DNA from: a virus
Lineage: Duplodnaviria > Heunggongvirae > Uroviricota > Caudoviricetes
Virus record (IMG/VR): IMGVR_UViG_643348551_000007
Length of the DNA stretch: 35,597 nucleotides
Strand: one strand, 5' to 3'
The position numbers and the translations under genes were made by a program. Below the pieces are notes generated by a model, which worked only from the letters and a program-made list of their open reading frames with translations, did no database searches and was not told the DNA's origin. Position 1 is the stretch's first letter. Each line of letters opens with the position of its first letter. Positions 3,075 through 35,266 of the stretch are shown here, piece after piece.

Positions 3075-3084
3075 CAGGTGCTTT

Positions 3085-8549: not shown

Positions 8550-8877
8550 TTCGATGTAATCCTCTTCTCACAGCCCTATCCAGCTCAGAAAGCATTCCTT
8601 CTTTATAATTCACTCCATCTAAAGATGTTCTGCTATAAAATTCATTCGGAGATGAAAAAAGAGGCAATATATTCTCTAGCATACCCAAAAAGTATGAGCT
8701 TGACACAACCACACCATTCGGAATTGATAGAAAAATCCTATCATTGTTATCAAAAGTAAAGCGATCTATGCCAAAGAAACTATATGCCTTGCGACCATTA
8801 TCACGCCCAGCAAATAATTTCTTGCCGCCATCTTTAACTAATTTATTGAAATCTATATAAATATTTGCCATTTTCAT
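8533..8877 (-). CDS. Small STAS-like (DUF4325-like) protein, second gene of the cargo operon
   Basis: 114 aa; segment FLSIPNGVVVSSSYFLGMLENIL resembles the DUF4325/STAS-like signature (hydrophobic-x-SSSF-x-D/E-L), a family typically encoded next to GHKL ATPases; starts 11 bp after the ATPase stop. Confidence 0.6.
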   Translation of the reverse strand: MKMANIYIDFNKLVKDGGKKLFAGRDNGRKAYSFFGIDRFTFDNNDRIFLSIPNGVVVSSSYFLGMLENILPLFSSPNEFYSRTSLDGVNYKEGMLSELDRAVRRGLHRNVPFF

Positions 8878-8888
8878 TTACCTATTCC

Positions 8889-13611: not shown

Positions 13612-13765
13612 TGCTCCCCCTGAGTAATTACAGGAAGATTACCCGCGCGCGAAACCGTTCTCCTTAACCCCCTGTTCTGGCCGTTTTCTTACAACAAAAG
13701 CCCTTTGTATCAGCCTGTTACGCTTTGCCATCATGACTGAAGAACCAGTCAGAGGGGCAAAAACT
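13612..13765. promoter_or_regulatory. Divergent late promoter region (P_P / P_O equivalent)
   Basis: Noncoding gap between divergent P and O, where P2 has its Ogr-dependent late promoters; imperfect dyad TGT-N15-ACA at about 13673-13693. Confidence 0.45.
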
Positions 13766-18439: not shown

Positions 18440-18590
18440 CACTCCCACATGGGGAAATCTCGGTATATGGGGCGACCGCCTTCTGGATGCACTGGAAACC
18501 TGTAACGCGGATAAACGGGCCATTGAATTACTGGAACAGCGCAGGCTGCAACGACTGAACAACGAGGATAACAACCATGCTGAAAACTGA
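18300..18590 (+). CDS. Outer-membrane lipoprotein spanin (Rz1 / LysC-like)
   Basis: Lipobox LLTGC in MNAPTLCLTLVLLTGCAG, proline-rich body, begins inside the 3' part of the i-spanin gene in another frame. Confidence 0.65.
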   Translation: MNAPTLCLTLVLLTGCAGTQNAPRPAPSVRLIPQTLTIPVTPPPFPDTPTWGNLGIWGDRLLDALETCNADKRAIELLEQRRLQRLNNEDNNHAEN

Positions 18591-19044
18591 TTCCCTGCGT
18601 GAAGCCATGACCCGTTCATGCCGATGGTGTCAGGCCAACCCGGAAAAATTCACCATTTTCGTGGAGAGCGGCAACATTGAAACGACAGGAGAAACCCCAT
18701 CGTTTGTTTACCGCTATCAGATGGTGATGTTTGTCATGGATTACGCCGGGGAGCTGGATGACCTCACGCTGCCGCTGCTGGCGTGGTTATCCAAAAATCA
18801 GCCACAGTTGTTGCTCAACCCTGAGCGTAATCAGGACATCAAATTCTCCGCCGTTATCAATGACGATGACAGCGCCGACCTCCTGTTTACGCTCCCCCTG
18901 CGGGAACGCGTTCGCATCACGCGCAACAGTCAGGGCACACCGCAGGCAGAACACCTGCCGGAGCCAAAACCCCGTCTGCCCTCTTCCGAAGGCGACTGGT
19001 CGCATGTATTCCAGGATGTGACGTGGGGTGAAAGCGATGGATAA
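18577..19044 (+). CDS. R: Tail completion protein
   Basis: ORF track; 155 aa, same size and position as P2 gpR. Confidence 0.85.
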   Translation: MLKTDSLREAMTRSCRWCQANPEKFTIFVESGNIETTGETPSFVYRYQMVMFVMDYAGELDDLTLPLLAWLSKNQPQLLLNPERNQDIKFSAVINDDDSADLLFTLPLRERVRITRNSQGTPQAEHLPEPKPRLPSSEGDWSHVFQDVTWGESDG

Positions 19045-19672
19045 GGCATTCACCCGCGTGGATGAAACCTTTGAGGCCATCCGCGACAGCCTGAATCAGC
19101 AGGCCATCAATAACATCGCCAGAAAGCTGGCACAGGATTTACGCCGCGCCCAGCAGGCGCGTATCCGGTCACAGAAAGCGCCGGACGGGACCGCGTGGAC
19201 ACCACGCAGACGCCGCGTAACCCGGATACAGGAGCGCATTCGCTTTATCTGGAATAACGAAGCACGCACGCTGAAAAACTGGCATCACGACACGGGGAAA
19301 TACGGGCGAACCATTACCGGGTGGGATGAGGATAAAAACAATATCCGCACGTTTTACCGGGATGACATCGACCGTTTTCTGGAAATACGCACCCGGCGCA
19401 TCAACCAGGACAGCACCAGGCGCGTCCCCATGTTCGTAAAACTGCGCACCGCCCGCTACCTGAAAGCCCGTGCAGATGCTTCCGGTGTGACGGTGGGTTA
19501 CAGCGGCGTGTCCGCACGTATTGCCCGCGTTCATCAGTTCGGTGAGCGCGATCAGGTTGCGCCGGGCATTTTCACCGATTACCCGGTACGTGAGCTGCTG
19601 GGTATCAGCCAGGCAGATGAGCGCCTGATTTATAACACGGTGCTGGGCCGGATTGCGGAGGCTGTACGGTGA
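19037..19672 (+). CDS. S: Tail completion / virion morphogenesis protein
   Basis: ORF track 19028..19672; position as P2 gpS. Confidence 0.8.
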   Translation: MDKAFTRVDETFEAIRDSLNQQAINNIARKLAQDLRRAQQARIRSQKAPDGTAWTPRRRRVTRIQERIRFIWNNEARTLKNWHHDTGKYGRTITGWDEDKNNIRTFYRDDIDRFLEIRTRRINQDSTRRVPMFVKLRTARYLKARADASGVTVGYSGVSARIARVHQFGERDQVAPGIFTDYPVRELLGISQADERLIYNTVLGRIAEAVR

Positions 19673-21497: not shown

Positions 21498-22020
21498 TTC
21501 ACTGTTACCACCATCAGCCAGCAGTTTCATGCGTTGTGCCGAAGCTGTCGGAACGCGCATTACAGACATCCCGGTAGACCTCAACACGCTGTGGTCGCCG
21601 GACACCTGCCCGGTGCACCTGCTGCCTTATCTCGCCTGGGCATTTTCCGTTGACCGTTGGGATCGCAACTGGCCGGAAGAGACAAAACGACAGGTGATTC
21701 GTGATGCATGGCTGATACACCGACACAAAGGGACCATCAGCGCACTGCGCAGGGCCATTGAGCCGCTGGGATACCTCATTCGCGTGTCTGAGTGGTGGGA
21801 GTTCGGCGGAGAACCGGGAACATTTACCGTTGAAGTCGGCACACTGGACAGTGGCGTGACGGAGGAAATGTATCTGGAAATGGAGCGGTTGATTGCTGAT
21901 GCCCGTCCGGTCAGCCGCCACATGACAGGGCTGAATATCATTCAGGAAATTCCGGGGGATATTTTTGCAGCGGCGGCAACTTATGACGGTGAAGTTATTA
22001 CCATTTATCCGGACGATTAA
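21490..22020 (+). CDS. I: Baseplate protein
   Basis: ORF track 21457..22020; start set at ATG 21490 overlapping the J stop. Confidence 0.85.
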   Translation: MSNSLLPPSASSFMRCAEAVGTRITDIPVDLNTLWSPDTCPVHLLPYLAWAFSVDRWDRNWPEETKRQVIRDAWLIHRHKGTISALRRAIEPLGYLIRVSEWWEFGGEPGTFTVEVGTLDSGVTEEMYLEMERLIADARPVSRHMTGLNIIQEIPGDIFAAAATYDGEVITIYPDD

Positions 22021-22022
22021 GC

Positions 22023-24008
22023 ATGAGTACCACAACACGAAAATTTAAAACCGTTATCACCGATACAGGTGCCAAAAAATTAGCTCAGGCAGCCGCGCCA
22101 GATGGTAAGCCTGTCCGCCTGACTCATATGGCCGTGGGCGACGGTGGCGGCACGTTGCCCACACCAGACAGTAAGCAGACCCGTCTGGTGCATGAGGTGT
22201 GGCGACACACTGTTAATCGCGTCATCCTGGACGCAACACATCAGAACCGCATTATTGCGGAGCTGGTTATTCCTCCTGAAACGGGCGGATTCTGGATCCG
22301 GGAAATTGGTGTATTTGATGAGCACGGCGATTTAATCGCGGTGGGCAATACTGCCGAAAGTTACAAACCAACCGTTGCCGAAGGGTCCGGACGTGCACAA
22401 ACATTTCGCACCATTCTGACCGTATCCAGCACTGCCACCGTGGCGCTTACCGTGGATAACACCATGGTGATGGCCACAGTGGATTACGTGGATGACAAAC
22501 TGAAAGAGCATGAACAGTCACGACGTCACCCGGACGCCTCGCTGACCGCAAAAGGCTTTGTTCAACTCAGTAGCGCCACTAACAGCGTGTCTGAAACGCA
22601 GGCTGCAACGCCGAAAGCGGTTAAGGCCGCCTATGACCTTGCTAACGGGAAATATACCGCACAGGACGCCACTATAGCGCGAAAAGGCCTTGTTCAGCTC
22701 AGTAGCGCCACCAACAGCGATTCTGAAACGCTGGCGGCAACACCAAAGGCGGTAAAGGCAGCATATGACCTTGCTAACGGGAAATATACCGCACAGGACG
22801 CTACCACAGCGCGAAAAGGTCTTGTCCAGCTCAGTAGTGCCACCAACAGCACGTCTGAAACATTGGCCGCGACATCGAAAGCGGTTAAGGCGGTAATGGA
22901 TGAAACAAATAAGAAAGCCCCATTAAACAGCCCGACGCTGACCGGAACGCCAACAACACCAACTGCGCGACAGGGAACGAATAATACCCAAATCGCAAGC
23001 ACGGCTTTCGTTATGGCTGCGATTGCCGCCCTTGTAGATTCGTCACCTGATGCACTGAACACGCTGAACGAGCTGGCTGCGGCGTTGGGCAACGACCCGA
23101 ATTTTGCGACCACCATGACTAACGCGCTTGCGGGTAAGCAACCGAAAGATGCCACCCTGACGGCGCTGGCCGGGCTTGCTACTGCGGCAGACAGGTTTCC
23201 GTATTTTACGGGGAATGATGTCGCCAGCCTGGCAACTCTGACAAAAGTCGGGCGGGATATTCTTGCGAAATCGACCGTTGCCGCCGTTATCGAATACCTC
23301 GGTTTACGAGAACTCGGCACAAGCGGGGAGAAAATACCGTTACTCAGTACAGCGAATACCTGGACCAATCGACAAACATTCAGCGGTGGCCTTTCTGGGG
23401 AACTGTCCGGCAATGCCGCTACTGCAACAAAGCTGAAAACAGCACGAAAAATTGCTGGAGTTGGTTTTGATGGTTCTAGCGATATTTCAATTAGTGCCAA
23501 AAATGTCAATGCATTTGCACTCCGACAAACAGGTAATACTGTTAATGGTGATACATCCGTTGGATGGAATTGGGATAGTGGTGCATATAACGCCATGATT
23601 GGTGGTGCATCTGCATTAATTCTTCACTTTAATATAAATGCTGGTAGCTGTCCTGCCGTACAATTCCGTGTGAATTATAAAAATGGTGGCATTTCCTACA
23701 GGTCGGCTCGTGATGGTTATGGGTTTGAATTAGGTTGGTCAGATTTCTATACCACGACACGAAAACCTTCAGCGGGAGATGTTGGTGCATATACGCGGGC
23801 AGAATGTAACTCAAGGTTTATTACAGGTATTCGCCTTGGCGGTCTGTCATCTGTTCAGACATGGAATGGTCCCGGCTGGTCTGACAGGTCAGGTTATGTC
23901 GTTACGGGTTCAGTTAACGGAAACCGTGATGAATTAATTGATACAACACAGGCAAGGCCAATTCAGTATTGCATTAATGGGACGTGGTATAACGCGGGGA
24001 GTATTTAA
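22023..24008 (+). CDS. H: Tail fibre protein, constant N-terminal part fused to the currently expressed variable C-terminus
   Basis: 661 aa; tandem repeats in the shaft; C-terminus ...IQYCINGTWYNAGSI; followed by a tail-fibre assembly gene. Confidence 0.9.
   Translation: MSTTTRKFKTVITDTGAKKLAQAAAPDGKPVRLTHMAVGDGGGTLPTPDSKQTRLVHEVWRHTVNRVILDATHQNRIIAELVIPPETGGFWIREIGVFDEHGDLIAVGNTAESYKPTVAEGSGRAQTFRTILTVSSTATVALTVDNTMVMATVDYVDDKLKEHEQSRRHPDASLTAKGFVQLSSATNSVSETQAATPKAVKAAYDLANGKYTAQDATIARKGLVQLSSATNSDSETLAATPKAVKAAYDLANGKYTAQDATTARKGLVQLSSATNSTSETLAATSKAVKAVMDETNKKAPLNSPTLTGTPTTPTARQGTNNTQIASTAFVMAAIAALVDSSPDALNTLNELAAALGNDPNFATTMTNALAGKQPKDATLTALAGLATAADRFPYFTGNDVASLATLTKVGRDILAKSTVAAVIEYLGLRELGTSGEKIPLLSTANTWTNRQTFSGGLSGELSGNAATATKLKTARKIAGVGFDGSSDISISAKNVNAFALRQTGNTVNGDTSVGWNWDSGAYNAMIGGASALILHFNINAGSCPAVQFRVNYKNGGISYRSARDGYGFELGWSDFYTTTRKPSAGDVGAYTRAECNSRFITGIRLGGLSSVQTWNGPGWSDRSGYVVTGSVNGNRDELIDTTQARPIQYCINGTWYNAGSI
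22551..22946 (+). repeat. Three in-frame tandem repeats of 132 bp (44 aa) inside H
   Basis: KGFVQLSSATNS.SET.AATPKAVKAAYDLANGKYTAQDAT.AR repeated starting at about 22551, 22683 and 22815; third copy diverges at its end. Confidence 0.75.
23287..23313 (+). other. gix-like recombination (crossover) site, left
   Basis: TTATCGAATACCTCGGTTTACGAGAAC; shares the ACCTCGGTTTAC core with the right site and with Gin gix sites. Confidence 0.7.
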
Positions 24009-24010
24009 CG

Positions 24011-24544
24011 ATGATGCACTTAAAAAACATTACTGCTGGCAACCCTAAAACAAAAGAGCAATACCAGCTAACAAAGCAATTTAACATCAAATGGCTTTAT
24101 TCAGATGATGGAAAAAACTGGTATGAGGAACAAAAGAATTTCCAGCCAGACACTTTGAAAATGGTCTATGACCATAACGGCGTTATTATTTGTATTGAAA
24201 AGGATGGTTCAGCAATTAATCCGGAAGGCGCAAGCGTCGTTGAATTACCTGATATTACAGCAAATCGCCGGGCTGATATTTCGGGGAAATGGTTGTTCAA
24301 AGATGGCGTAGTGATAAAGCGAACTTATACCGAGGAAGAGCAGAGGCAACAAGCGGAAAATGAAAAGCAAAGCCTGTTGCAACTTGTCAGGGATAAAACC
24401 CAGCTATGGGACTCACAGCTACGGCTGGGCATCATTTCCGACGAGAATAAACAAAAATTAACCGAGTGGATGCTCTATGCGCAGAAAGTCGAATCTACAG
24501 ACACCTCCAGCCTGCCAGTAACGTTTCCCGAACAACCAGAATGA
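24011..24544 (+). CDS. G: Tail fibre assembly protein (currently expressed copy)
   Basis: 177 aa; conserved N-terminus [22 protein letters not shown] shared with the inverted copy. Confidence 0.85.
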   Translation: MMHLKNITAGNPKTKEQYQLTKQFNIKWLYSDDGKNWYEEQKNFQPDTLKMVYDHNGVIICIEKDGSAINPEGASVVELPDITANRRADISGKWLFKDGVVIKRTYTEEEQRQQAENEKQSLLQLVRDKTQLWDSQLRLGIISDENKQKLTEWMLYAQKVESTDTSSLPVTFPEQPE

Positions 24545-24547
24545 GAG

Positions 24548-24575
24548 AAGGCCCGATATTGGGCCTTAATTTTTA
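24548..24575. terminator. Bidirectional rho-independent terminator between the convergent tail-fibre assembly genes
   Basis: AAGGCCC-gatatt-GGGCCTT hairpin followed by AATTTTT. Confidence 0.65.
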
Positions 24576-25100
24576 CTCAGGCTTTTGTGGCCATTCTGGA
24601 TTTGCTGTATCCACACGGCTGACCAGAACGCTGTAGCGTTCCCATGACTCCAGTCGTGTGCGTTCCTCATCCGTCGCCATATTCAGCCTGACAGCGCGTT
24701 CCAGTGGCTGAATAACGCTTTCAGCTTCAGAAAGCAACGCGACCTTTTGTGATTCGGCCTGTTGTTGCTGTTCGTCTGCTGTATAAATCCGCTTAACCAC
24801 AGTTCCGTCCTTAAACATCCACTTCCCTGAATCATCGGCACGACGATTGGCTGTTATATCTGGAATCTCAACGACACTAAAGCCTTCGGGATTAAGCGTT
24901 GAGGCATCTTTGGTTATGGCAACAATAATATTATTTTCGTCGTATACAATCTTTATGGTGTCGTCCTGAAAGTTATTTACTTCCTCATACCAGTTTTTAC
25001 CGTCTTCGGACCATAACCAGATAACATCAAAATTCTTTGTTAGCTGATATTGTTCTTTTGTTTTTGGACTTCCGGACTTAATATTTTTTAAATGCTGCAT
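24573..25100 (-). CDS. Tail fibre assembly protein (alternative copy)
   Basis: 175 aa; N-terminus [22 protein letters not shown] paralogous to 24011..24544. Confidence 0.85.
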
Positions 25101-25103
25101 AAT

Positions 25104-25976
25104 TTACACCTGTGCGACGTTATACCATGTGCCATTGATGTATTTTTGTATTGGTCTGAAGATGGCTTCATCATCGCCATCTACTTCACCAATGATTCTT
25201 AATCCGGTAATTGCGTGTCCGGCTTTTTCATAACGACCACCACGCGCCATCAATTGAACAACACGCGTACCCAGGCGAACATCTTTTACATAGCGTGAAT
25301 CAAAATTCCCCCAGTTGCTGGGCTGTATCTGACCGTTAACAGAAAATATTACCGAGTTATCTGTATTTCGCTGGCTATAGAAATGCCATCCTGCCTCATC
25401 GCCTAACTCTGCAACTACTGGACGGGTTGAAGCACCCCATAAATTAAACGTTGCATTCTTTGTGGAGGTGTTGGAGCTGGATAGCGAGAACTTTTTACTA
25501 TCACCTGCCTGAATGTTTTTAAAAGCAATAGCAACTCCATTCTGAAAGCGGAATACTCGCTGACTATTAGCGTAAACATCCAGAATACCATCACCATTCT
25601 GTTTGAATCCGGTGTCATTATCACCAAGAACAATAGAGCTACCACCTAACGCATTCGTCGTACCAACTCCAAGACTGCCATTAATGACGGCATTTACCAG
25701 AATATTTAGTGCATCCCATTTCAGCGTCATCAGGTCTTTTGTTGTGGTGCTCTGGCGGCTTCTCCATTTGAAATATTCATTGCCGTTGTCGCCTGTTTCA
25801 AACCACATGTATGAATCAGTGTCACCATCAGCATCATTTTTAAATCCAATCTTCGCCCAGTCAGTATTTCGAATCCAGGCAAGGATTGAGTCATTTTCAA
25901 AAGTAAGCCTACCGGACAAAGTATCGCCATTTTTTTGCACGGCGTTACCAGCCCTGTTTACCGTTTCCTGTAAACC
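25104..25976 (-). CDS. Alternative tail-fibre C-terminal cassette (promoterless and startless until inversion)
   Basis: Open frame runs from the right gix site; on inversion it would read ...EYLGLQETVNRAGNAVQKNGD... in frame with H; C-terminus IQKYINGTWYNVAQV parallels that of H. Confidence 0.75.
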   Translation of the reverse strand, partial: GLQETVNRAGNAVQKNGDTLSGRLTFENDSILAWIRNTDWAKIGFKNDADGDTDSYMWFETGDNGNEYFKWRSRQSTTTKDLMTLKWDALNILVNAVINGSLGVGTTNALGGSSIVLGDNDTGFKQNGDGILDVYANSQRVFRFQNGVAIAFKNIQAGDSKKFSLSSSNTSTKNATFNLWGASTRPVVAELGDEAGWHFYSQRNTDNSVIFSVNGQIQPSNWGNFDSRYVKDVRLGTRVVQLMARGGRYEKAGHAITGLRIIGEVDGDDEAIFRPIQKYINGTWYNVAQV

Positions 25977-25990
25977 GAGGTTTTAAATAA
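25963..25990 (-). other. gix-like recombination (crossover) site, right
   Basis: Reverse complement reads TTATTTAAAACCTCGGTTTACAGGAAAC, near-identical to the Gin gix consensus as I recall it. Confidence 0.75.
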
Positions 25991-26026
25991 TGGCCGTTTC
26001 TGGCCTGCATGGCATGATTTGCGCTT

Positions 26027-26644
26027 TTGGACGGGAGATTCAGTGTGCTGATTGGCTATGTAAGGGTATCAACAAATGACCAGAATACAGACCTGCAACG
26101 AAACGCTCTTGTTTGTGCAGGATGTGAACAAATATTTGAAGATAAATTAAGCGGGACAAAGACAGACCGACCGGGATTAAAACGCGCTTTAAAGCGCCTT
26201 CAAAAAGGTGACACGCTGGTTGTCTGGAAACTGGATCGCCTCGGGCGAAGCATGAAACATCTGATTTCTCTCGTCGGGGAACTACGGGAGCGAGGGATTA
26301 ATTTTCGCAGTCTGACCGACAGCATAGACACATCTTCTCCAATGGGGCGTTTTTTCTTCCACGTGATGGGTGCCCTGGCTGAAATGGAACGTGAATTAAT
26401 TGTTGAACGTACACTGGCCGGGCTGGCGGCAGCGCGCGCAAGGGGGCGCACAGGCGGACGTCGACCGAAGCTGACAAAAGAACAGCATGAGCAAATAGCA
26501 AGGCTAATCAAAAACGGGCACGACAGAAAACAACTGGCAATAATTTACGGCATTGGCACATCGACGATTTATCGTTATCACCCTGTAGGCGATATACAGA
26601 CTGAAGAAACAACCGGGCAGACTCAGGAAAATGAAAACCGCTAA
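26027..26644 (+). CDS. Serine recombinase, Gin/Pin/Hin-family DNA invertase
   Basis: VLIGYVRVSTNDQNTDLQRNALVCAGCEQIFEDKLSG... is near-identical over the catalytic domain to Mu Gin as I recall it; likely true start is the GTG at 26045. Confidence 0.95.
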   Translation: MDGRFSVLIGYVRVSTNDQNTDLQRNALVCAGCEQIFEDKLSGTKTDRPGLKRALKRLQKGDTLVVWKLDRLGRSMKHLISLVGELRERGINFRSLTDSIDTSSPMGRFFFHVMGALAEMERELIVERTLAGLAAARARGRTGGRRPKLTKEQHEQIARLIKNGHDRKQLAIIYGIGTSTIYRYHPVGDIQTEETTGQTQENENR

Positions 26645-26663
26645 TCTGACCATTAGCGGTTTT
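26634..26663. terminator. Bidirectional terminator between convergent invertase and U
   Basis: Perfect 12-bp stem AAAACCGCTAAT / ATTAGCGGTTTT with 6-nt loop; T-rich on both flanks. Confidence 0.6.
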
Positions 26664-26672
26664 TGTGTTAAA

Positions 26673-27167
26673 TCAGAACAGCCCTTTAACTGAACTGGCC
26701 GCGCTGTTAAGAGATGATGTCACCTTATCTTTGAAGCCGGACAGCATATCACTGAACGATGAGGATTGCAGGCGCTCCCGCAAATCCTCATCACAGCGTT
26801 CAAGGGTCAGTGAAAATTCTATCTTTTTCGCCTTACCGTAGCGATCAAACTCGGAACGGGTCGTATTCGTTCCGGTCAGGACATACATGCCGTAAATCTG
26901 CCCGACGCCATCAATCAAAGGCCAGGGTCGTCCTGTATACGCCTGCGTGGTCAGCAGCGACAGCGACACTTCGCCACCTGTAATTTCAGGATAAAGCACA
27001 CCAGAAAGAACGATGCGATCATCACCTGCACCGATATACTGCCAGCTTGCTGAACGGTTAACGCGTTCATTTTTCACATGCCGCCAGCTTTTGTTTTGCT
27101 GTAACTGCTGATGCGGCAGCGTGCGCAGCTCAAAAACAAACATGCCGTAGATCATCATCATGGCCAT
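26673..27167 (-). CDS. U: Tail protein U
   Basis: 164 aa; ...FVFELRTLPHQQLQQNKSWRH... resembles the P2 gpU N-terminus; directly downstream of T. Confidence 0.82.
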   Translation of the reverse strand: MAMMMIYGMFVFELRTLPHQQLQQNKSWRHVKNERVNRSASWQYIGAGDDRIVLSGVLYPEITGGEVSLSLLTTQAYTGRPWPLIDGVGQIYGMYVLTGTNTTRSEFDRYGKAKKIEFSLTLERCDEDLRERLQSSSFSDMLSGFKDKVTSSLNSAASSVKGLF

Positions 27168-27173
27168 GACTCC

Positions 27174-30017
27174 TCAATCTTTATCGTAAAAACTGCCACG
27201 CCCGGCACGGGCGCGCCGTTCCATTTCTGCCCTGACCATTTCACCGACCAGTTTCGCCAGTTCGCGGGGATTCTGCGTAACAACGTTATGCAGATGAACA
27301 TGAATTTCACCACCAAATCCGGAGGCAACAGGCTCCCGGTTACGGGAAGTTGCAGGAACTGATGCCACTGGCGATCGTATGGCCTCCGCCACCGGGCGGG
27401 AGCTGGCCGCAACAACAGGGACCAGCGCCGGAGGCAGCGGAGCCGGAACCACGGGTGTGATATTAATTGCGGGGTCAGGCTTACTGACCTGCGCAATCTT
27501 CCGCTCCTGCCACTCCCCACGAACAGCAAGTGCGCGGGGCAGGTTCTTAAAGACAATATCGCCGGGGCCAATGCGTTTTTTCGTCTCATCAACCAGCTTA
27601 CCTGTGTTATCAGCAATTTTGCTGAGTCTGCGTAGCGTACCGGTATTGCTGTCTGTGAGCGGTTTGTTGTCTTTGGGCTTATCACCTCCGGTGCCATTGC
27701 CATTTTCCACAGGCTTCGGCGGATTGATTTTCGCCAGGTCCCCCTGAAGCAAGGCAACCTTGTCCTGAAGAATGGCCGCACGCTGTGCGTCTTCGATTTT
27801 CTTGCGCGCCCTTTCCGCTTCATCCGGAAGCACACCGAGCTTTTCAAGTATCCACGCCAGCGTATCCAGCAACATTTTTGCAGGTGTCAGAACAAGTTGT
27901 AACGCACCGCCAAGAACGTTACCGAATATCTCGCCAGCACTGGTACATTTATCCAGCGTTTCCTTGCTGGACTCCATCGGTGACAGCAGCGATTTAAACC
28001 AGTTAAACACCTGGCTGATCCCGCTTCCGATTGCGTCAAAAACAGGACCAAACCGTTCAAAGGTTTCGCGCAACGGGGTCAGCCTTTCCATAATCCCGCT
28101 GAACACCCCGGCAAAAAATGCCCTGATGGGATCCCAGTATTTCCAGATAAGAACGGCAGCTCCGGCAAGCGCAGCCACGATAAGACCGACCGGACTGAAC
28201 AACGCCCCGATAGCGCCCCCCAGTAACGAAACGGAACCCGTCACCATTCCCCATAGTGCTGGCAGGAGTCTGACAGCATTCATTGAACCGGTCAGGAGGG
28301 AAAAGCCAAGACGCAGTTTTGCCAGCGGGCCAGCAAGCACACCAATAGCCAGCGACAACGAGCCAACCGTTGCAGTCATTGCCAGCAACGCACCGCCTGC
28401 TATCAGTAGCTGGCGCGTCAGTACCGGATGGGCCTGCGCCAGCGAGGTGATTTTTTCAAGCACCCGCGTGAGCCACTGCGTGACAGAACGCAGCGGACCG
28501 TCAACCAGATCACTGATGCGAATACGAAGACCTTCCCATGCGCTGTCGAGATTTTTCAGGTCCCCATCAAGATTATCGGCCATTACTTTTGCAACGCGAT
28601 CGGCCTCTCCCCTTGCCCCCTGCAATTCTCTGGTCAGTTTTTGCAGCTCTCCTGAACCAGCCGCCGCAACAAGCGTCTGCAAACCAACGAACGCCTCTTC
28701 TCCGGCGATGTCCTTGAAGAAGGAGACCTGGTCCACCTGTCCGTATTTTTGTGTCGCCTTATAGAGATCAAGCAGCACATCCTCCATCGGGCGCATTTTG
28801 CCTCTGGCGTCAGCAACTGACACCCCCAGCTCTTTCAGCGCATCAGCCGCAGCTTTTGGCGGTGATGCAAGGCGGGACAGACTTGCGCGCATGGCCGTAC
28901 CAGCATCGCTTCCACGAAGACCATTATTGGCAAGCATCCCGGCCATGGCTGCCGCTTCTTCAAGACTGATACCAAGTTTTGCGGCAACCGGACCGGTATA
29001 CTTCATGGTTTCGCCCAGCGCGCGTAAATCAGTATTGGTCCGGGTGAATGCCGCTGTCAGCGTATCGCCAACCCGGTCCATTTGATCGGCTGTCAGTTTG
29101 AACTGTGTGAGGATATTGGAGCCTATATCCGCCGTCTCGCCGAGTTCGACGCCACCTGCCAGCGCCATATTAAGAACACCGGGCAATGCGGCCTGAATGG
29201 CCTGCGGAGTAAAACCAGCCATTGCCAGAAAGCTCTGCCCACTGGCGGCATCACTCGCAGTAAACTGTGTTTCAGAACCAAGTTTTAACGCCTGCTCACG
29301 CAGCGCCTTAAACTGCGGGCTTTTTTTGTCGATTCGCGTCAGTGCCTGAACGCGGGACATCTCTTTGCCGAACCCGATCGCAGGCTGCAAAAAACGCCCG
29401 GCAGCATAGCCGCCAGCCGCTGCAGCACCAATTGCCAGCGCACCACCTGTTTTCAGTTTTCCCGCGGTTTCCTGCGCGCGCGAATACCGCTCACGCGCCC
29501 GCGTTACACGCGCAAGCGCCTGCCGTTCGCGTTCAAGCTGGTTGTTGTACTGTTCGGTGCGTCTGATGGCCTGCTGGATGGTGTTATCGCTGCCTGTCAG
29601 GGAAATGCCGTGGCGTTTCAGCTCTCCGCCAAGTTCCCGCATTTTCTGAATTTCCCGTGTGCGCGATTCATTCAGGCGTTCAAGCCGGGTGCTTAACTGC
29701 TGCATCAGCTTTTGTTGTTTTTCGCTGAGCACTGTACCCGTGCGTTGTAACTGATTAAGGGCGTTAAGCTGGCGTCGTGCTTTCACGATACCCGCATCCG
29801 CTTTACTGACAGCGTCGCGGGCGCGCTCAAATGAACGCGCCTGACGCTCGAGATTTTTGATCGCCCCCTGCGTTCGCTGGATGGAGTCACCAAACTGCCC
29901 CATCAGGCGGCGGGCGTTTTCGGCAGGCCGGGTCAGCCTGTCAACGGCGCTGAAAGCGACCCGGATATCAAGAGTCTTCATTGTCTGCATTCCCGCTGCG
30001 AAGTGCCGCCCGCTCAC
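27174..30017 (-). CDS. T: Tail tape measure protein
   Basis: 947 aa; N-terminal coiled coil, central hydrophobic Gly/Ala-rich segments, downstream of E/E'; true start may be an internal Met near 29980-29990. Confidence 0.9.
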   Translation of the reverse strand: MSGRHFAAGMQTMKTLDIRVAFSAVDRLTRPAENARRLMGQFGDSIQRTQGAIKNLERQARSFERARDAVSKADAGIVKARRQLNALNQLQRTGTVLSEKQQKLMQQLSTRLERLNESRTREIQKMRELGGELKRHGISLTGSDNTIQQAIRRTEQYNNQLERERQALARVTRARERYSRAQETAGKLKTGGALAIGAAAAGGYAAGRFLQPAIGFGKEMSRVQALTRIDKKSPQFKALREQALKLGSETQFTASDAASGQSFLAMAGFTPQAIQAALPGVLNMALAGGVELGETADIGSNILTQFKLTADQMDRVGDTLTAAFTRTNTDLRALGETMKYTGPVAAKLGISLEEAAAMAGMLANNGLRGSDAGTAMRASLSRLASPPKAAADALKELGVSVADARGKMRPMEDVLLDLYKATQKYGQVDQVSFFKDIAGEEAFVGLQTLVAAAGSGELQKLTRELQGARGEADRVAKVMADNLDGDLKNLDSAWEGLRIRISDLVDGPLRSVTQWLTRVLEKITSLAQAHPVLTRQLLIAGGALLAMTATVGSLSLAIGVLAGPLAKLRLGFSLLTGSMNAVRLLPALWGMVTGSVSLLGGAIGALFSPVGLIVAALAGAAVLIWKYWDPIRAFFAGVFSGIMERLTPLRETFERFGPVFDAIGSGISQVFNWFKSLLSPMESSKETLDKCTSAGEIFGNVLGGALQLVLTPAKMLLDTLAWILEKLGVLPDEAERARKKIEDAQRAAILQDKVALLQGDLAKINPPKPVENGNGTGGDKPKDNKPLTDSNTGTLRRLSKIADNTGKLVDETKKRIGPGDIVFKNLPRALAVRGEWQERKIAQVSKPDPAINITPVVPAPLPPALVPVVAASSRPVAEAIRSPVASVPATSRNREPVASGFGGEIHVHLHNVVTQNPRELAKLVGEMVRAEMERRARAGRGSFYDKD

Positions 30018-30204
30018 GCCAGCTAACCACTTCGCCGGGCGTCATCATGAAGATTTCGGCGGGCGACCAGTTAAAAATGGCGGCAATATCCGCCACAAAG
30101 TCTTCTATGTGCTCAAAGCACACAACCGTGATCAGGCTTCCGTCGCCTGTTCGTTCTTCCCGCCAGAGTCCGCACCGCTCAAAAAATTTACGGCAACCAC
30201 ACAT
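29968..30204 (-). CDS. E': E' extension frame (expressed only as the E+E' frameshift product)
   Basis: Track ORF 29968..30204 overlaps the 3' end of E in the -1 frame and continues to the tape measure start, exactly the gpE/gpE+E' arrangement. Confidence 0.7.
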   Translation of the reverse strand: MCGCRKFFERCGLWREERTGDGSLITVVCFEHIEDFVADIAAIFNWSPAEIFMMTPGEVVSWRERAALRSGNADNEDS

Positions 30205-30506
30205 AACTGAATAAAGTCACGGGATGCCATTTTTTTGATCGTCACTTCATCCAGTCGCGGTGATGTCACGCGTGACAGCAGCGTAAACATGGATTCCGCT
30301 TTCAGATTCAGCACATCAGACAGCGACAAATCTCGCAGAGATCCAGCCTGCTCAATAGCCCCGGTGATCTCCACATACGTGATTTTTTCGCCACCACGCT
30401 CAATTGGCCGGGAAAGTTTTACACCACGTTCGACAGCCATATCCTCACCTGCCGTCACATCATCCGCCACGGTGTTATTCCGGGTTTCAGTATCGATGTC
30501 TTTCAT
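30132..30506 (-). CDS. E: Tail assembly chaperone
   Basis: 124 aa between tail tube and tape measure; ends shortly after the slippery site. Confidence 0.82.
   Translation of the reverse strand: MKDIDTETRNNTVADDVTAGEDMAVERGVKLSRPIERGGEKITYVEITGAIEQAGSLRDLSLSDVLNLKAESMFTLLSRVTSPRLDEVTIKKMASRDFIQLCVVAVNFLSGADSGGKNEQATEA
30180..30186 (-). promoter_or_regulatory. Programmed -1 ribosomal frameshift slippery heptamer (TTTTTTG)
   Basis: Minus strand reads GTA AAT TTT TTG AGC near the end of E; slipping one base back here joins the E frame to the E' frame. Confidence 0.7.
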
Positions 30507-30561
30507 CAGTTGTCTCCTTTTCAGTCAGAGGCGACGCACTGCGCCGCCTGCATATTACTTA

Positions 30562-31074
30562 TCAGCCAAGCCCAAGCGCGGAACGGATACGGTCAGGCAC
30601 AATGTCCTTGCCGTCCTTCCGGTAGATGTGGTTCAACAGGTCGATTTCCCACAGCGGGCGATCGTTAACGCTCAGCTTGTAGTAGGTGTTTTTGACAGCG
30701 TAAGTGTGTGATGTGGCTTCGCCCTGTTTGGCTTCCCCCATATCAATTTCCGTCACACGTCCGCGCATCTCGATTTCATACAGATCGCTTTCTGCATCGG
30801 TGTAGTATTCACCCGCAAAACGCAGCAGCGTGCCGTCAATCGTGCCGCCATATTTAAGGAACAGCGCACGAACAGCTCCCCCCATAACAAAACTCGCATC
30901 AAGCGCGGAGTCGTCCAGACCGAGATCAATACTTACCGCCCCCATCATGCCACCACCACGATAGCTGTCGGTTTTGCGCGTCAGTTTGGGCGGCGTGACG
31001 GATGTCACTTTACCCACTTCGTTTTCACCATCCACAAACAACGTAAAAAAGCGAAGATGTTTTGGTACAGCCAT
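30562..31074 (-). CDS. FII: Tail tube protein
   Basis: 170 aa (P2 FII 172 aa); directly downstream of sheath. Confidence 0.9.
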   Translation of the reverse strand: MAVPKHLRFFTLFVDGENEVGKVTSVTPPKLTRKTDSYRGGGMMGAVSIDLGLDDSALDASFVMGGAVRALFLKYGGTIDGTLLRFAGEYYTDAESDLYEIEMRGRVTEIDMGEAKQGEATSHTYAVKNTYYKLSVNDRPLWEIDLLNHIYRKDGKDIVPDRIRSALGLG

Positions 31075-32258
31075 CAGGCACCTCCCAGCACCGCAAATGC
31101 GGGACCAAAGAATTCATCAGTAAACGTCTGGTAAAGCTCCATGTCTTCCAGTGGCGGAACGGGCGTATATTTGTAGCGAATACGCACACGTCCCTGACGT
31201 AAATCCGTGGTGCCGTTATCCACTACGTCATACCAGCACTCCGCACCAATCAGTTTCCCGGCAGTAACCAGCGAATCCAGTTTTGCCCTGATGGCACTGA
31301 TAACATCCTTCACGTTCGCAGGCGTCAGTGGACTGTCGATGGTTTCAAACTGCGCTTCCGCAATTGAATCAGCCAGCACCTGTGCGGTTCGGGTATACAC
31401 CTCAAAGATGTAGGCGTTCGTTTCCGGTGTGCGGTTGCCCCAGAAGCGGAACCCGTTGCGACGAATAATGGTCGTAATTTCTTTGTTATTGAGGCTGTTG
31501 GCATCACTGTCTTCGGCCTGCAACGACCAGAACACATGCCTGGACATTCCCAGCACATTTTTAACCGGAACGTTGGACAGCGATTTGTGCCAGCCCTGCT
31601 CATGGTCAATGTACGCACGAAGGCCGCACGCATAAGCAGGCGCGGGGAACGTTTCGTTTTTGCCACTTTTCGGGTTGTAGGCGATGAAGTCAGGCCATAA
31701 GAGCATCACCTCACGTTCGTTGAATTTCTGGCGGTAGGTAATCGCCTCAGCCATCGTGTTACAACCATGACATGTGGCATACACAAACGCGCGCAGTTTA
31801 CCCGCAATCACGCACAGGGATTTTGTTACCGCCTCCGTGTCCAGCTCCGGCGCGGCCAGAATACGCGGACGGTATCCGATGCTTTCATCCTGCTCTGCAA
31901 CAAGCAGCGCATACATCCCCGTATAGCTGCCGTCATCCTCAGAACCACCGATAACCAGTTGATCCTGCGTCTTTCCATCTTCTTCTTTGTGTTCAGCCAC
32001 GCGAACGACGATCACCTTTGTGCTCACCTGGTCTGCGATGGCCTTAAGCGCACGATAAAGCGTCCCCGTTGTTCCGCATTTTCCCAGCACGTCATTGACG
32101 CGGGTCAGCAGTGTGGGCTTGTTCAGCGGGAACAGCTTCGCGTCCGCATCATCCGCCGTTGCCACGATACCGATAACGCTGGAATCAACATCGTTAATCG
32201 CTGTTACCAGGTCGGTATTTTCCGTAACACGGGCACCATGAAAACGAGTTTCACTCAT
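31074..32258 (-). CDS. FI: Tail sheath protein
   Basis: 394 aa (P2 FI 396 aa). Confidence 0.93.
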   Translation of the reverse strand: MSETRFHGARVTENTDLVTAINDVDSSVIGIVATADDADAKLFPLNKPTLLTRVNDVLGKCGTTGTLYRALKAIADQVSTKVIVVRVAEHKEEDGKTQDQLVIGGSEDDGSYTGMYALLVAEQDESIGYRPRILAAPELDTEAVTKSLCVIAGKLRAFVYATCHGCNTMAEAITYRQKFNEREVMLLWPDFIAYNPKSGKNETFPAPAYACGLRAYIDHEQGWHKSLSNVPVKNVLGMSRHVFWSLQAEDSDANSLNNKEITTIIRRNGFRFWGNRTPETNAYIFEVYTRTAQVLADSIAEAQFETIDSPLTPANVKDVISAIRAKLDSLVTAGKLIGAECWYDVVDNGTTDLRQGRVRIRYKYTPVPPLEDMELYQTFTDEFFGPAFAVLGGA

Positions 32259-32415
32259 AGCTTCAGCCCCTTGTATCCGTTAAATGATTCAGCAACAATC
32301 ATCACCTACCACGCGCGTAATCTCACCCCTGCGCCGTTCTCCCGCCACGGCGACAACAAAAAGCAGTAACCCCTTCCGCACGCACATGCGACCATGCCGC
32401 ACAGGGAGGGAACAG
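32259..32415. promoter_or_regulatory. Divergent promoter region between FI (minus) and D (plus)
   Basis: 157-bp noncoding gap between divergent starts; contains dyad TGATT-N7-AATCA and a TGT...ACA element at about 32272-32297. Confidence 0.35.
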
Positions 32416-33513
32416 ATGACCGACACCACCATGCAATTGCTCAGTCAGGGCACAGACCCCGTGAAAATGCCGGATTTTGATATTCTCGCGGAGGGTAAAA
32501 CGCTGTCAGGCGTGGCAGAGCGCCTGATGAGCCTGTCACTGACCGACAACCGGGGATTTGAGGCGGACCAGCTCACCATCACGCTGGATGATGCGGATGG
32601 TCAGTTGCAGCTACCGCCACGGGGCGCGCGCCTGACGGTTCTCATTGGCTGGAAAGGAGAACCGCTGACAGAAAAAGGCACTTACATTGTTGATGAAATC
32701 GCTCACGAAGGACCGCCGGACAGGCTGACGGTTTCAGCCAGAAGCGCAGATTTTCGGGATGAATTTAACGTTAAACGTGAGGTGTCCTGGCATGATGTGA
32801 CCGTTGAGCGCGTGGTATCCGCCATCGCTCATCGGTACGGTCTGAAACCACAAATCAGCGAAATGCTGATGGATATTGAAATCGACCACGCCGACCAGAC
32901 CGAAGAAAGCGACATGTCCTTCCTTACGCGCATGGCGGAAATGCTGGGCGCAATCACTACGGTAAAAAGCGGTAATCTGTTATTCATCATGCCAGGCGGT
33001 GGCGTGAACGCGCAGGGCCAGCCGTTGCCCTCGTTCGCCATCACACGCAGCAGCGGCGATCGCCATCAGTTCCGCATTGCTGACCGAGAGGCGTATACGG
33101 GGGTACGCGCTTACTGGCTTGATCTTAATTACGGGAAAAAGAAAAAAGTCAGCGTGAAACGCCGTAAACCGAAAATGGAGAAAAGCAGTAGCCGTGAAGG
33201 CGACTATATGGAAGGTGCGGAAGGCAACGTGTTTGTGTTACGCAAGACTTATCAGAACGAACAGGCAGCAAGACGCGCTGCGGCGGCAAAGTGGCAGCAG
33301 CTACAACGCGGAGCCGCATCATTCTCCATCACACTGGCACGTGGACGCGCAGAACTCTACCCCGAAATGCATGGCACGGTAACAGGATTTAAAAGCGAGA
33401 TTGATAATCAGGACTGGATTATTGCAAAAGCCGAGCACACCATTGATAACAGCGGTTTTACCACGCAGCTTGAACTTGAAACAAAAATCCCTGAATGGAT
33501 TGCGCAGACCTAA
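32416..33513 (+). CDS. D: Tail protein D (late control gene D family)
   Basis: LSLTDNRGFEADQL, RSADFR, SWHD, ITRSDGDRH-like, EGDYMEGAEGNVF and SGFTTQLELE blocks match P2 gpD as I recall it; start set at ATG 32416 with GGGAGGG Shine-Dalgarno. Confidence 0.9.
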   Translation: MTDTTMQLLSQGTDPVKMPDFDILAEGKTLSGVAERLMSLSLTDNRGFEADQLTITLDDADGQLQLPPRGARLTVLIGWKGEPLTEKGTYIVDEIAHEGPPDRLTVSARSADFRDEFNVKREVSWHDVTVERVVSAIAHRYGLKPQISEMLMDIEIDHADQTEESDMSFLTRMAEMLGAITTVKSGNLLFIMPGGGVNAQGQPLPSFAITRSSGDRHQFRIADREAYTGVRAYWLDLNYGKKKKVSVKRRKPKMEKSSSREGDYMEGAEGNVFVLRKTYQNEQAARRAAAAKWQQLQRGAASFSITLARGRAELYPEMHGTVTGFKSEIDNQDWIIAKAEHTIDNSGFTTQLELETKIPEWIAQT

Positions 33514-33528
33514 ATGGTGGGAAGATAC

Positions 33529-33567
33529 GGCACAGAGCCAACATAATATACCTGTTTGCTCTGTGCC
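33529..33567. terminator. 10-bp inverted repeat after D (possible terminator)
   Basis: GGCACAGAGC ... GCTCTGTGCC with a 19-nt loop; no clear U-tract. Confidence 0.3.
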
Positions 33568-33643
33568 CGAAATAGGCATCATAAACCTAACGATGAATTG
33601 ATATGCAAGATTATAAAAAATCCGCTGACATTATTTCTCATCG

Positions 33644-34804
33644 TTAATCAAGTTTTTGCTGATGATACCGATACAGCATCATTCTAAGTTTTAGCAAGGT
33701 TGTACTATCATTATCTGCAGAGCAAAAATTATACCAACCTTCAGTATATTTATTTAAAGTATCAAAGTAATAATCCTTCAATGGATCATCCCTATCTGAG
33801 TGGAGACAAGAAAACATCTTCTGAAGAATATAATTTAATTCACCTGTAGGAAGCCTCGAAATAATCACATCACAAGTAGTTGTTAAATCTTCAATATTCA
33901 TTTTCTGAAGATTATTTCTAATCTCTAAAACGATCGGATAGAGTTTACTCAAAAACTCATTTACTTCATCTTGAAGATGCTTCTCTTTAACACAACCATC
34001 AAACAAATGAATTAACTCTTCCAATTGCATTCGGTAATAATCATTATTACCTCGTATAGCGACTTCTGAAAGAAGCAGCCTCAACTCATCATAAATGTTA
34101 TCGGTGGATGATATAACTTGCGCGGACAAAACATCGTAATGGTTGTTACGAATTACCACTATAGAGTCCATTAGTTTTTCTAGATATTTATACCTACTTT
34201 CAACATATGAGATAAGCTCGTTAAATTTAATACCGAAAATAACATCATCCACACCGGGTTTATTATTATAAAGACTTATAGTAAAATCATTATTATTAAG
34301 TGCATAAAAATGAGGCCAACTCGCAAACAATCTCTCCCCGTGGTTATTTTTAAGATTCGTAGGGTGAGCACCAAAAATAGCGCGAACACTCTTAAAATAA
34401 GAGTCATCATCCTCATGCGAAAGATAATGTATTTTATCCTTAAAAATATCAACAGAGCCTTTAAAGGGCCATTTCATAAAATTATTGTCACTTTCAATAA
34501 TACGATGGAGTTGCCGCACCGCTTCCACTATTATATCGATTGATGATATAATAGTATAAATCTGCATAGCTTTAATATCAATGTCTTCAGATATTTCAGG
34601 GATGTTCATAAGATAGCGTACAGAAACAGTAATCCAATCCATGCATGAACAAATAGGGCTGAACTGATTTTTACCATTTCTGTTTATGAAGTAACTATAA
34701 ACAAAATCTCTTTCATTAACTACATCGCGAAAATCCGTTATTAAAGTATCATTAATAGTTATACCAAAATTTGTCTTAGTTATCTTCATGGTGACCATTT
34801 TCAC
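33644..34804 (-). CDS. AT-rich cargo gene, hypothetical 386-aa cytoplasmic protein (possible Abi/HEPN-like)
   Basis: ORF track; strongly AT-rich, opposite orientation to flanking D and ogr; contains an R-x5-H stretch (RAIFGAH); no TM segments. Confidence 0.7.
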   Translation of the reverse strand: MKMVTMKITKTNFGITINDTLITDFRDVVNERDFVYSYFINRNGKNQFSPICSCMDWITVSVRYLMNIPEISEDIDIKAMQIYTIISSIDIIVEAVRQLHRIIESDNNFMKWPFKGSVDIFKDKIHYLSHEDDDSYFKSVRAIFGAHPTNLKNNHGERLFASWPHFYALNNNDFTISLYNNKPGVDDVIFGIKFNELISYVESRYKYLEKLMDSIVVIRNNHYDVLSAQVISSTDNIYDELRLLLSEVAIRGNNDYYRMQLEELIHLFDGCVKEKHLQDEVNEFLSKLYPIVLEIRNNLQKMNIEDLTTTCDVIISRLPTGELNYILQKMFSCLHSDRDDPLKDYYFDTLNKYTEGWYNFCSADNDSTTLLKLRMMLYRYHQQKLD

Positions 34805-35005: not shown

Positions 35006-35266
35006 ATGTTCCGTTGTCCGCTTTGTGGCGCATCTGCCCGTATCCGCACCAGTCGTCCGGAAAATGATTCAAACACCGTGCGGCAAAAGTATTACCAGTG
35101 TAACAACCTGGAATGCGGCGTATGCTTCTCAACACTGGAAGCTTTCCATAAATTCACATCGAAACACGCCTCCGGCGTTCACTCTTCAGATGGTATCCCG
35201 TGGCATGAGCTGCCAGCTTCACACAGGGGAAACAATCAGATGAGTTTGCCTTTACCTCAGAATTAA
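35006..35266 (+). CDS. ogr: Zinc-finger late-gene transcriptional activator, Ogr/Delta family
   Basis: MFRCPLCGASARIRTSR...YYQCNNLECG parallels P2 Ogr (MFHCPLC...YHQCQNVNCS) with four Cys; AAGGGAGG Shine-Dalgarno. Confidence 0.9.
   Translation: MFRCPLCGASARIRTSRPENDSNTVRQKYYQCNNLECGVCFSTLEAFHKFTSKHASGVHSSDGIPWHELPASHRGNNQMSLPLPQN

Follow-up and report, generated by a model that had tools for sequence, protein, structure and literature searches.

In phages P2 and 186 the tail genes FI to D are read in one direction, whereas in the prophage studied here FI to U point the opposite way and D stands apart from them. Such a locus raises the question of whether the block has flipped recently, leaving D stranded, or whether this is the settled layout of a phage lineage, and from where D would then be transcribed. 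The stretch of DNA analysed (hereafter the window) is the whole 35,597-nucleotide IMG/VR record IMGVR_UViG_643348551_000007. Genes in its tail half were called from an ORF list together with PHROGs and Pfam matches (Table 1), whilst position and size, plus comparison of the O N-terminus with that of P2, served to assign the head genes. The window thereby holds a complete P2-type late set (Q P O N M L X, lysis, R S V W J I H G, FI FII E E' T U D and ogr), and every tail ORF is full length as judged by PHROGs. H and G form the end of a rightward V-W-J-I-H-G operon, FI-FII-E-T-U is a leftward operon with FI first and U last, and D is a transcription unit of its own. The first-pass annotation had placed H, G and the invertase on the plus strand, U, T, E'/E, FII and FI on the minus strand and D on the plus strand, and had described the block as inverted relative to P2 and 186; the ORF list, PHROGs and Pfam confirm the strands, and the annotation of the P2 record confirms the inversion. 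Our preferred reading, to which we give a probability of roughly 80%, is that the window is a P88-type prophage in which FI to U were inverted once, long ago, for the whole lineage; that the operon was split by this event; that D would now be transcribed from an Ogr site shared with FI; and that the adjoining invertase is unrelated.

Table 1. Features of the late region of the window (strand is left empty where none applies)
Feature	Position	Strand	Basis or remark
Dyad GTTCT-N12-ACAACA in divergent P-O gap	13674-13696		Same dyad as in FI-D gap; gap comparison
-10-like hexamers of P-O gap	13641-13636; 13729-13734		TAATCT on P side; CATCAT on O side
H, tail fibre	22023-24008	+	PHROGs tail fibre families, E 1e-191
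Left gix-like crossover site, within H	23283-23312		Inverted repeat (I3) with 25965-25994, 80% over 30 nt
G, tail fibre assembly	24011-24544	+	phrog_136, E 1e-73
G', alternative chaperone	24573-25100	-	phrog_136; Caudo_TAP
Alternative H C-terminus	25104-25940	-	phrog_454; Gp34_trimer
Right gix-like crossover site, TTCCTGTAAACCGAGGTTTTAAATAA	25965-25994		Immediately upstream of invertase gene; only close copy in window
Gin/Cin/Pin-type serine DNA invertase	26027-26644	+	phrog_125, E 1e-96; Pfam Resolvase and HTH_7
Hairpin, perfect 12-bp stem, 6-nt loop, T-runs on both strands	26634-26663		Terminator scan; between convergent invertase and U
U, tail	26673-27167	-	phrog_76, E 8e-75
T, tape measure	27174-30017	-	phrog_28, E 3e-220
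E' frame	29968-30204	-	PF06528 Phage_P2_GpE
E	30132-30506	-	phrog_103
E/E' -1 slippery heptamer TTTTTTG, P2-type	30186-30180	-	Sequence match
FII, tail tube	30562-31074	-	phrog_55, E 1e-58; alignable to P2 FII
FI, tail sheath	31074-32258	-	phrog_23, E 1e-124
FI-D divergent gap, 157 bp	32259-32415		Between FI and D; predicted two-way Ogr-dependent late promoter
Predicted -10 GATGAT for FI (pF)	32298-32303	-	Predicted start ~32291
Ogr/Delta-type activator dyad GTTCT-N12-ACAACA	32336-32358		5/6 match to TGT-N12-ACA
Predicted extended -10 TGcGACCAT for D	32387-32395	+	Predicted start ~32402, 13-14 nt before ATG
D, tail/baseplate hub	32416-33513	+	PF05954; GGAGGG ahead of start; 99% identical to P88 D
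ogr-type late activator	35006-35266	+	PF04606 Ogr_Delta, E 5e-14

The invertase gene lies directly beside one end of the block, and the first-pass annotation had linked the flip to it, whilst reporting no gix-like repeat at the two junctions. Its ORF opens at a TTG (26027), the likely start being the GTG at 26045 (VLIGYVRVS...). The two gix-like sites enclose G' and the alternative H C-terminus, and the enclosed genes resemble those of the Mu G and P1/P7 C segments. All the hallmarks of a Gin/Cin/Pin/Hin system are found in this tail-fibre segment (23283-25994), namely a serine invertase, inverted 26-bp sites, and an opposed alternative fibre C-terminus with its chaperone. Searching 21500-33600 for inverted repeats returned no pair that brackets the tail block or joins its two junctions, and no third gix-like site with up to 3 mismatches was found in the window. 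The absence of repeats at the junctions is thus upheld, whereas the link to the invertase is not, given that the gix-like pair flanks the fibre segment. This link is weakened further by the relatives: among the closest 80 of 421 loci, some 50 of the flipped ones lack a nearby invertase, and at two loci of P2 layout one is present. We regard the invertase as an unrelated accessory module whose action is confined to the 2.7-kb tail-fibre segment enclosed by its two gix-like sites. The tail block itself was considered as a Gin/Cin/Pin/Hin invertible segment and rejected, its ends having no gix-type pair and the E. coli genomes only one orientation.

A recent inversion of the 5.6-kb block, whether the work of the neighbouring Gin-like invertase acting on cryptic sites or a product of misassembly, would strand D and might make the prophage defective. 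Such an event would fit both the position of the invertase gene and the exactness of the inversion relative to P2, but it is effectively refuted by the distribution of the layout. Of 5426 complete E. coli genomes, 1103 have the collinear flipped arrangement at 95-98% identity, ST131 strains such as JJ1886 being among the carriers, and 1357 have an intact FI-D junction. A synthetic canonical U-D junction, by comparison, was found in none of the 1413 E. coli genomes holding either half. A very common prophage type, carried by roughly one in four complete E. coli genomes, has the flipped layout as its standard architecture. Moreover, sequence comparison places P88, PhiSM and SEN4/5 in the same layout, and these are plaque-forming phages (PMC5285337, PMC6456863, PMC5261728). 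Functional relatives in this orientation are part of what the first-pass annotation had said would speak against its reading. The full-length tail ORFs, the confinement of the gix-like sites to the fibre segment and the spread of a single flipped clade whose members mostly lack an invertase all argue in the same direction. The first-pass annotation had left two options, a defective prophage or a lineage that has rewired its operon; the latter is favoured, whilst a defect finds no support among functional relatives arranged alike, nor does a recent or artefactual origin.

The wider survey of architecture took in the closest 80 of 421 D-positive loci plus outgroups, and rare reversions elsewhere are possible. 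Among phage records, 48 have a D at least 60% identical to the query. Within it, every locus whose D is 58.8-100% identical to the query is flipped (64/64, approximately 27 genera), and every locus with a more distant D is of P2 type (24/24), among them the outgroups from Ralstonia (RSA1), Pseudomonas and Vibrio. In neighbour-joining trees of both D (63/63) and FI (62/62) the flipped loci group together to the exclusion of all others, and this single clade points to one ancient inversion. The opposite polarity, in which enterobacterial P2-like phages started from the flipped order and an inversion then produced that of P2/186, might draw on the fact that both layouts are widespread in Enterobacterales. 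It is, however, highly improbable: FI..U and D are co-directional in all of the Ralstonia, Pseudomonas and Vibrio outgroups, and the rooted D and FI trees nest the flipped clade, with P2-layout loci paraphyletic around it. Our literature search found no paper that remarks on the inversion or on a promoter for D, and the papers describing P88, PhiSM and SEN4/5 do not mention gene orientation.

If the layout is ancient, D still has to be transcribed. The first-pass annotation reasoned that it must be expressed from the 157-bp divergent gap, and this is upheld. The motifs in the gap suggest that D most likely has an Ogr-dependent promoter of its own there. Transcription from Ogr/Delta late promoters needs the activator and the RNA polymerase alpha subunit (rpoA109 phenotype), and the cognate zinc-finger activator is encoded by the phage. 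Promoters of this class were taken to have a TGT-N12-ACA dyad centred approximately 55 nt upstream of the start and a poor -35 region. An exact search of the window for TGT-N12-ACA gave five matches, which is chance level, none of them in late control regions; this search misses the candidate sites because one half reads TCT, and the TCT-bearing dyads were located by comparing the two divergent gaps. The exact string GTTCT-N12-ACAACA has only two copies in the window, one in the FI-D gap and one in the P-O gap. In the FI-D gap both -10-like hexamers are as far from the TCT-N12-ACA dyad as expected; the dyad centre is 88 nt from the ATG of FI and 70 nt from that of D, and the predicted FI and D starts are approximately 111 bp apart. 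A generic sigma-70 promoter scan returned nothing in this gap, as expected for activator-dependent promoters.

The same geometry recurs in relatives, for which we compared 59 distinct FI-D gaps of flipped loci with 14 pF regions of P2 layout. The distance from dyad centre to FI ATG is 72-88 nt across the 59 gaps; the dyad is canonical (TGT-N12-ACA) in 35 and has only one perfect half in 23. An A2/T6 hexamer is found D-ward at +44 to +49 in 53/59, accompanied by TG at +41/42 in 35/59, and FI-ward at the mirror offset in 58/59, whilst no other offset between 30 and 61 has a fraction above 0.17. In pF regions of P2 layout, the FI-side hexamer is likewise common (12/14) but its opposite-side counterpart occurs in only 1/14. 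The 59 gaps share descent and their conservation could in part be inheritance and not selection; against that stands the divergence of most other gap columns, to below 55% consensus.

D could instead be served by an Ogr-independent sigma-70 promoter in the gap, or by some other source, within an equally ancient layout, the dyad then acting for pF alone. We consider this unlikely, even though the element on the D side belongs to the extended -10 class (TGn plus hexamer), which can function without a -35 or an activator, and the left half-site of the dyad is degenerate in the window as in many relatives. In 53/59 loci the D-side hexamer is fixed 44 nt from the dyad centre, as is the FI-side one, despite variable gap length, and a spacing locked to the dyad is hard to explain if the dyad is irrelevant to the D side. 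The poor -35 region also speaks against a sigma-70 promoter, as does the nature of D, a structural late protein required along with the other tail proteins, and P2 pP/pO provides a precedent for one site serving both directions. The D-side -10 of the window (GACCAT) is weak, and the predicted D leader is only about 13 nt. On balance we favour a gap that would act as a mirror-symmetric, two-way Ogr-dependent promoter built on a single site and arisen after the inversion, and from the sequence we infer Ogr binding at the dyad and both transcription starts.

At the other junction, terminator scanning and folding bear out the perfect 12-bp hairpin noted in the first-pass annotation. Its folding energy is -17.1 kcal/mol on one strand and -15.7 kcal/mol on the other (z -4.6 and -4.3), and none of 200 shuffles folds as well. 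With a stable stem-loop and a U tract on both strands, placed between convergent genes, it looks like a putative two-way intrinsic terminator. Under a strict hairpin-plus-T-run rule, U is followed by a terminator in only 18 of the 61 flipped loci examined, and we therefore claim no conserved terminator; many of the other loci have a GC-rich hairpin after U with no clear T run.

We therefore return to the ancient, lineage-wide inversion as the preferred reading, and propose the following course of events. The window would be a P88-type (Xuanwuvirus-like) prophage of the P2 family, and its FI-FII-E/E'-T-U block would be leftward since a single inversion in the ancestor of a large Enterobacterales P2-like clade. 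The former F operon (FI..U-D) would thereby have come apart into two units, of which FI..U would still be under the old pF, with a new operon end converging on the V-W-J-I-H-G operon and, in the window, probably marked by the two-way terminator hairpin past the invertase cassette. D would have become a separate rightward unit, its late promoter using the dyad-symmetric Ogr-binding site of pF read in the opposite direction, with -10 elements predicted at mirror positions 44-49 nt to each side of the dyad. By virtue of the dyad symmetry, flipping pF-FI..U would have put D on the unused face of the activator site, and co-regulation of D would have been restored once a -10 evolved at the mirror distance. 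If true, this is a clean natural case of an operon split by inversion, rescued by promoter sharing and fixed across at least 27 bacterial genera, and it shows a way for an operon to outlive an inversion cut. The flipped tail block is otherwise ordinary biology with a modest regulatory footnote, and its presence in a P2-like prophage is no ground for calling that prophage rearranged, misassembled or defective.

The closest known systems are P88 (Xuanwuvirus P88, Peduoviridae) and Citrobacter phage PhiSM, whose late regions are 94-99% identical to the window in protein and approximately 94% in nucleotide sequence. From J to D both phages match the window exactly in gene order and strand, invertase cassette and leftward U-T-E-FII-FI included, and their FI-D gap (158 bp) has the same motifs. 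Against the genus-level criterion of approximately 70% nucleotide similarity over full length, P88 was compared over the 14-kb right part of the window, of which megablast aligned about 60% at 94% identity; the window has the P88/Xuanwuvirus-type trait of a leftward U-T-E-FII-FI with FI divergent from D. It differs from both phages in the H C-terminal/invertible segment, in an extra 1.16-kb low-GC gene between D and ogr (33644-34804) and in its low-GC cargo at 7758-10265. Scans of the low-GC cargo genes with PADLOC, Pfam and NCBIfam gave no match.

For the fibre segment the counterparts are the Mu G, P1 C and e14 P segments (Gin/Cin/Pin), with the same invertase, 26-bp sites and alternative fibre C-termini and chaperones; nucleotide identity to the Mu, P1, P7 and D108 segments is 89-93%. 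These systems explain the 2.7-kb fibre segment only, and not the orientation of the 5.6-kb tail block. The block itself compares with the F operon of P2 and 186 (pF-FI-FII-E-E'-T-U-D), which has the same genes, internal order and E/E' TTTTTTG frameshift site, and likewise an Ogr-type dyad approximately 80 nt upstream of FI. In the window, by contrast, the block is inverted and D no longer co-transcribed, protein identities are only 32-62%, and a predicted -10 lies on the far side of the dyad where the P2 pF region has none. The FI-D gap is closest in design to P2 pP/pO. In the annotation of the P2 record both promoters share a single activator site (3057-3087), midway between divergent starts 111 bp apart (3016 and 3127), a geometry like that of the FI-D gap, and the dyad in the P-O gap of the window is identical in sequence to that between FI and D. 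P2 pP/pO has been mapped experimentally and serves head genes, whereas the FI/D version is predicted and serves tail genes; if D is transcribed from that side of the pF activator site which faces away from FI, this would extend the 'one site, two promoters' design of P2 to tail genes.

The ORF map and family scans bore out every gene identity and strand named in the first-pass annotation, with the FI-FII-E/E′-T-U tail block inverted relative to the annotated P2 genome and a 157-bp gap separating FI from D (Table). The P2 slippery heptamer TTTTTTG is retained in the E/E′ pair at 30186-30180. Elsewhere in the window, S (18577-19044) overlaps V (19028-19672) and therefore, unlike P2, there is neither orf30 nor a separate pV control region. 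One long rightward late operon may run from pO through the genes for head, lysis, baseplate and fibre.

Table. Coordinates and strands of annotated and predicted features in the window.
Feature	Position	Strand	Basis or remark
H	22023-24008	+	ORF map and family scans
gix-like site, left	23283-23312		within H
G	24011-24544	+	ORF map and family scans
gix-like site, right	25965-25994		immediately 5′ of the invertase gene
Serine invertase	26027-26644	+	ORF map and family scans
Hairpin	26634-26663		12-bp stem, AAAACCGCTAAT-CTGACC-ATTAGCGGTTTT; between convergent invertase and U stops; T-runs on both strands
U	26673-27167	-	ORF map and family scans
T	27174-30017	-	ORF map and family scans
E′ frame	29968-30204	-	PF06528
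E	30132-30506	-	ORF map and family scans
FII	30562-31074	-	ORF map and family scans
FI	31074-32258	-	ORF map and family scans
FI start of transcription, predicted	about 32291		
FI -10 hexamer, predicted	32303-32298	-	GATGAT
D extended -10, predicted	32387-32395	+	TGcGACCAT
D start of transcription, predicted	about 32402		
D	32416-33513	+	PF05954; GGAGGG just ahead
ogr	35006-35266	+	PF04606
Island ORFs	7758-8549, 8533-8877, 8889-10265	-	263, 114 and 458 aa
386-aa ORF	33644-34804	-	33% GC insert between D and ogr

To place this layout among relatives, 80 loci (the best 80 of 421, one genome per species) were fetched from an alignment of D proteins and homologues of FI, FII, E, U, ogr and the invertase were placed by tblastn. 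In all 64 surveyed loci with a D at 58.8-100% identity to that of the window, among them the window itself, P88, PhiSM and SEN5, the block is leftward and D rightward. They span Escherichia, Salmonella, Citrobacter, Serratia, Edwardsiella, Kluyvera, Enterobacter, Pantoea, Erwinia, Kosakonia, Pectobacterium, Symbiopectobacterium, Mixta, Brenneria, Izhakiella, Klebsiella, Raoultella, Yokenella, Providencia, Xenorhabdus, Photorhabdus, Rouxiella, Dryocola, Hafnia, Morganella, Yersinia and an Aeromonas MAG. FI..U and D are co-directional in 24/24 loci with a more distant D, including P2 and the outgroups Ralstonia RSA1, a Pseudomonas Citexvirus and Vibrio VP58.5. Moreover, flipped loci form an exclusive clade in outgroup-rooted neighbour-joining trees of both D (63/63) and FI (62/62). 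Therefore, the P2 order is ancestral and the flip, a single ancient event, is a derived character shared across a large clade. Three surveyed loci merit comment. One contig filed under the Firmicutes ('Vagococcus sp. WN89Y', NZ_JBQPOM010000071.1, 226 kb) carries a prophage of the window's type whose D shares 99% identity with the E. coli form, and this assembly is most likely contaminated or mislabelled. In the flipped loci of Symbiopectobacterium purcellii and Klebsiella sp. WOUb02 the FI match is displaced or partial (FII lies ~1 kb further off in the former; the alignment begins at residue 146 in the latter), which suggests insertion or decay inside the sheath gene; these copies are probably degraded prophages.

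The first-pass annotation had offered two readings, a defective prophage or a lineage that has rewired the operon, and had named close functional relatives of the same orientation as grounds for refuting its account. Such relatives exist in deposited and published genomes. P88 (Xuanwuvirus), which matches the window in gene order and strand throughout J to D, was induced from E. coli K88; it is plaque-forming and has a burst size of ~65 and normal contractile-tail virions (PMC5285337). The layout is shared by Citrobacter phage PhiSM, which is spontaneously released, lysogenising and plaque-forming (PMC6456863). In the plaque-forming Salmonella phage SEN4/5 (Senquatrovirus; PMC5261728) D is just 62% identical, yet U-T-E-FII-FI run leftward and D rightward, at a locus without an invertase. 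A defect is thus not supported, and rewiring is the correct reading. The published papers on these three phages make no comment on tail-block orientation. Some public records also contain annotation slips: in OR565851.1 (Citrobacter phage Shae_phiSM, 9940-12391) 'late control gene D protein' is the label given to the sheath gene and 'ogr/Delta-like zinc finger' that given to D, whilst the ogr CDS is unannotated in the P88 RefSeq (NC_026014.1, about 14260), where tblastn places one directly after D at 98% identity.

Two further explanations for the orientation had been raised, an assembly artefact and a flip linked to the adjoining Gin-like invertase. Of 5426 complete E. coli genomes, 1103 gave a collinear one-piece match at 95-98% identity to a 7.7-kb query across both block junctions; these 1103 include ST131 strains such as JJ1886. 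The FI-D junction by itself is uninterrupted in 1357. A synthetic canonical junction, in which the 3′ end of U was fused to the start of D, occurs in none of these complete genomes, compared with 1413 containing one or both halves. Misassembly is therefore excluded, and the tail block is not a switching segment. As for the invertase, its own pair of gix-like sites encloses an alternative fibre C-terminus and chaperone, a standard member of the Mu G/P1 C type of invertible fibre segment. We found no further gix-like copy in the window and no inverted repeat bracketing the tail block. Moreover, the invertase adjoins U in only ~9 surveyed flipped loci and is also present in two P2-layout loci. 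The invertase is thus unrelated to the flip. The perfect hairpin reported beside it is real, folding at -17.1 and -15.7 kcal/mol (one value per strand), and reads as a putative two-way intrinsic terminator at which the rightward unit and the leftward FI..U operon would both end. In relatives a hairpin right after U is frequent, though only 18/61 satisfy a strict stem-plus-T-run rule.

The window also carries low-GC genes. A 2.5-kb island (7758-10265; 33-36% GC vs about 55% for the phage) is flanked by replication gene A and portal gene Q, where P2 has old/tin. None of its three ORFs matches Pfam, NCBIfam or PADLOC, and the island could be uncharacterised anti-phage cargo. The 386-aa ORF likewise has no family match in these three collections; P88 and most relatives lack it, with ogr directly after D. 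In the stretch from the D stop to this ORF there is a hairpin, GGCACAGAGC...GCTCTGTGCC (about 33529-33567).

Lastly, we considered how D may be transcribed from the FI-D gap (32259-32415). The Ogr/Delta consensus of P2/P4 late promoters is TGT-N12-ACA. The window contains just two exact copies of GTTCT-N12-ACAACA, which is this consensus with one mismatch (P2 sites are comparably imperfect), one in the P-O gap (13674-13696) and one in the FI-D gap (32336-32358). When 59 distinct FI-D gaps of the flipped clade were aligned on the dyad, 35 contained the canonical TGT-N12-ACA and 23 one perfect half, and the FI start codon lay 72-88 nt from the dyad centre in all. A -10-type hexamer, defined by the two key positions A2 and T6, occurs toward D at +44..+49 in 53/59 gaps and toward FI, at the mirrored offset, in 58/59; at the remaining offsets between 30 and 61 the fraction nowhere exceeds 0.17. 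Ahead of the D-side hexamer come TG at +41/+42, making an extended -10, in 35/59 gaps, and a conserved CGCGCGCG spacer. In contrast, 14 control pF regions of P2 layout have the FI-side hexamer in 12 and the far-side one in only 1. From this conserved geometry we propose that the FI-D gap acts as an Ogr-dependent late promoter in both directions. FI would continue to be driven by the old pF, and a mirror-image promoter toward D would have arisen after the inversion; the sole new element is this predicted shared-site promoter for D. The longest ORF for scaffold gene O begins at 13733, and comparison with P2 gpO suggests that the true start is the ATG at 13766 (MANEKK...), downstream of the 13733-13765 stretch; with that start the P-O gap would be 154 bp, nearly the size of the FI-D gap. 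In P2 itself, a single activator-binding site (3057-3087) is annotated for the divergent pP and pO, whose starts map to 3016 and 3127. These two lie 111 bp from each other, the distance that also separates the predicted FI and D starts.
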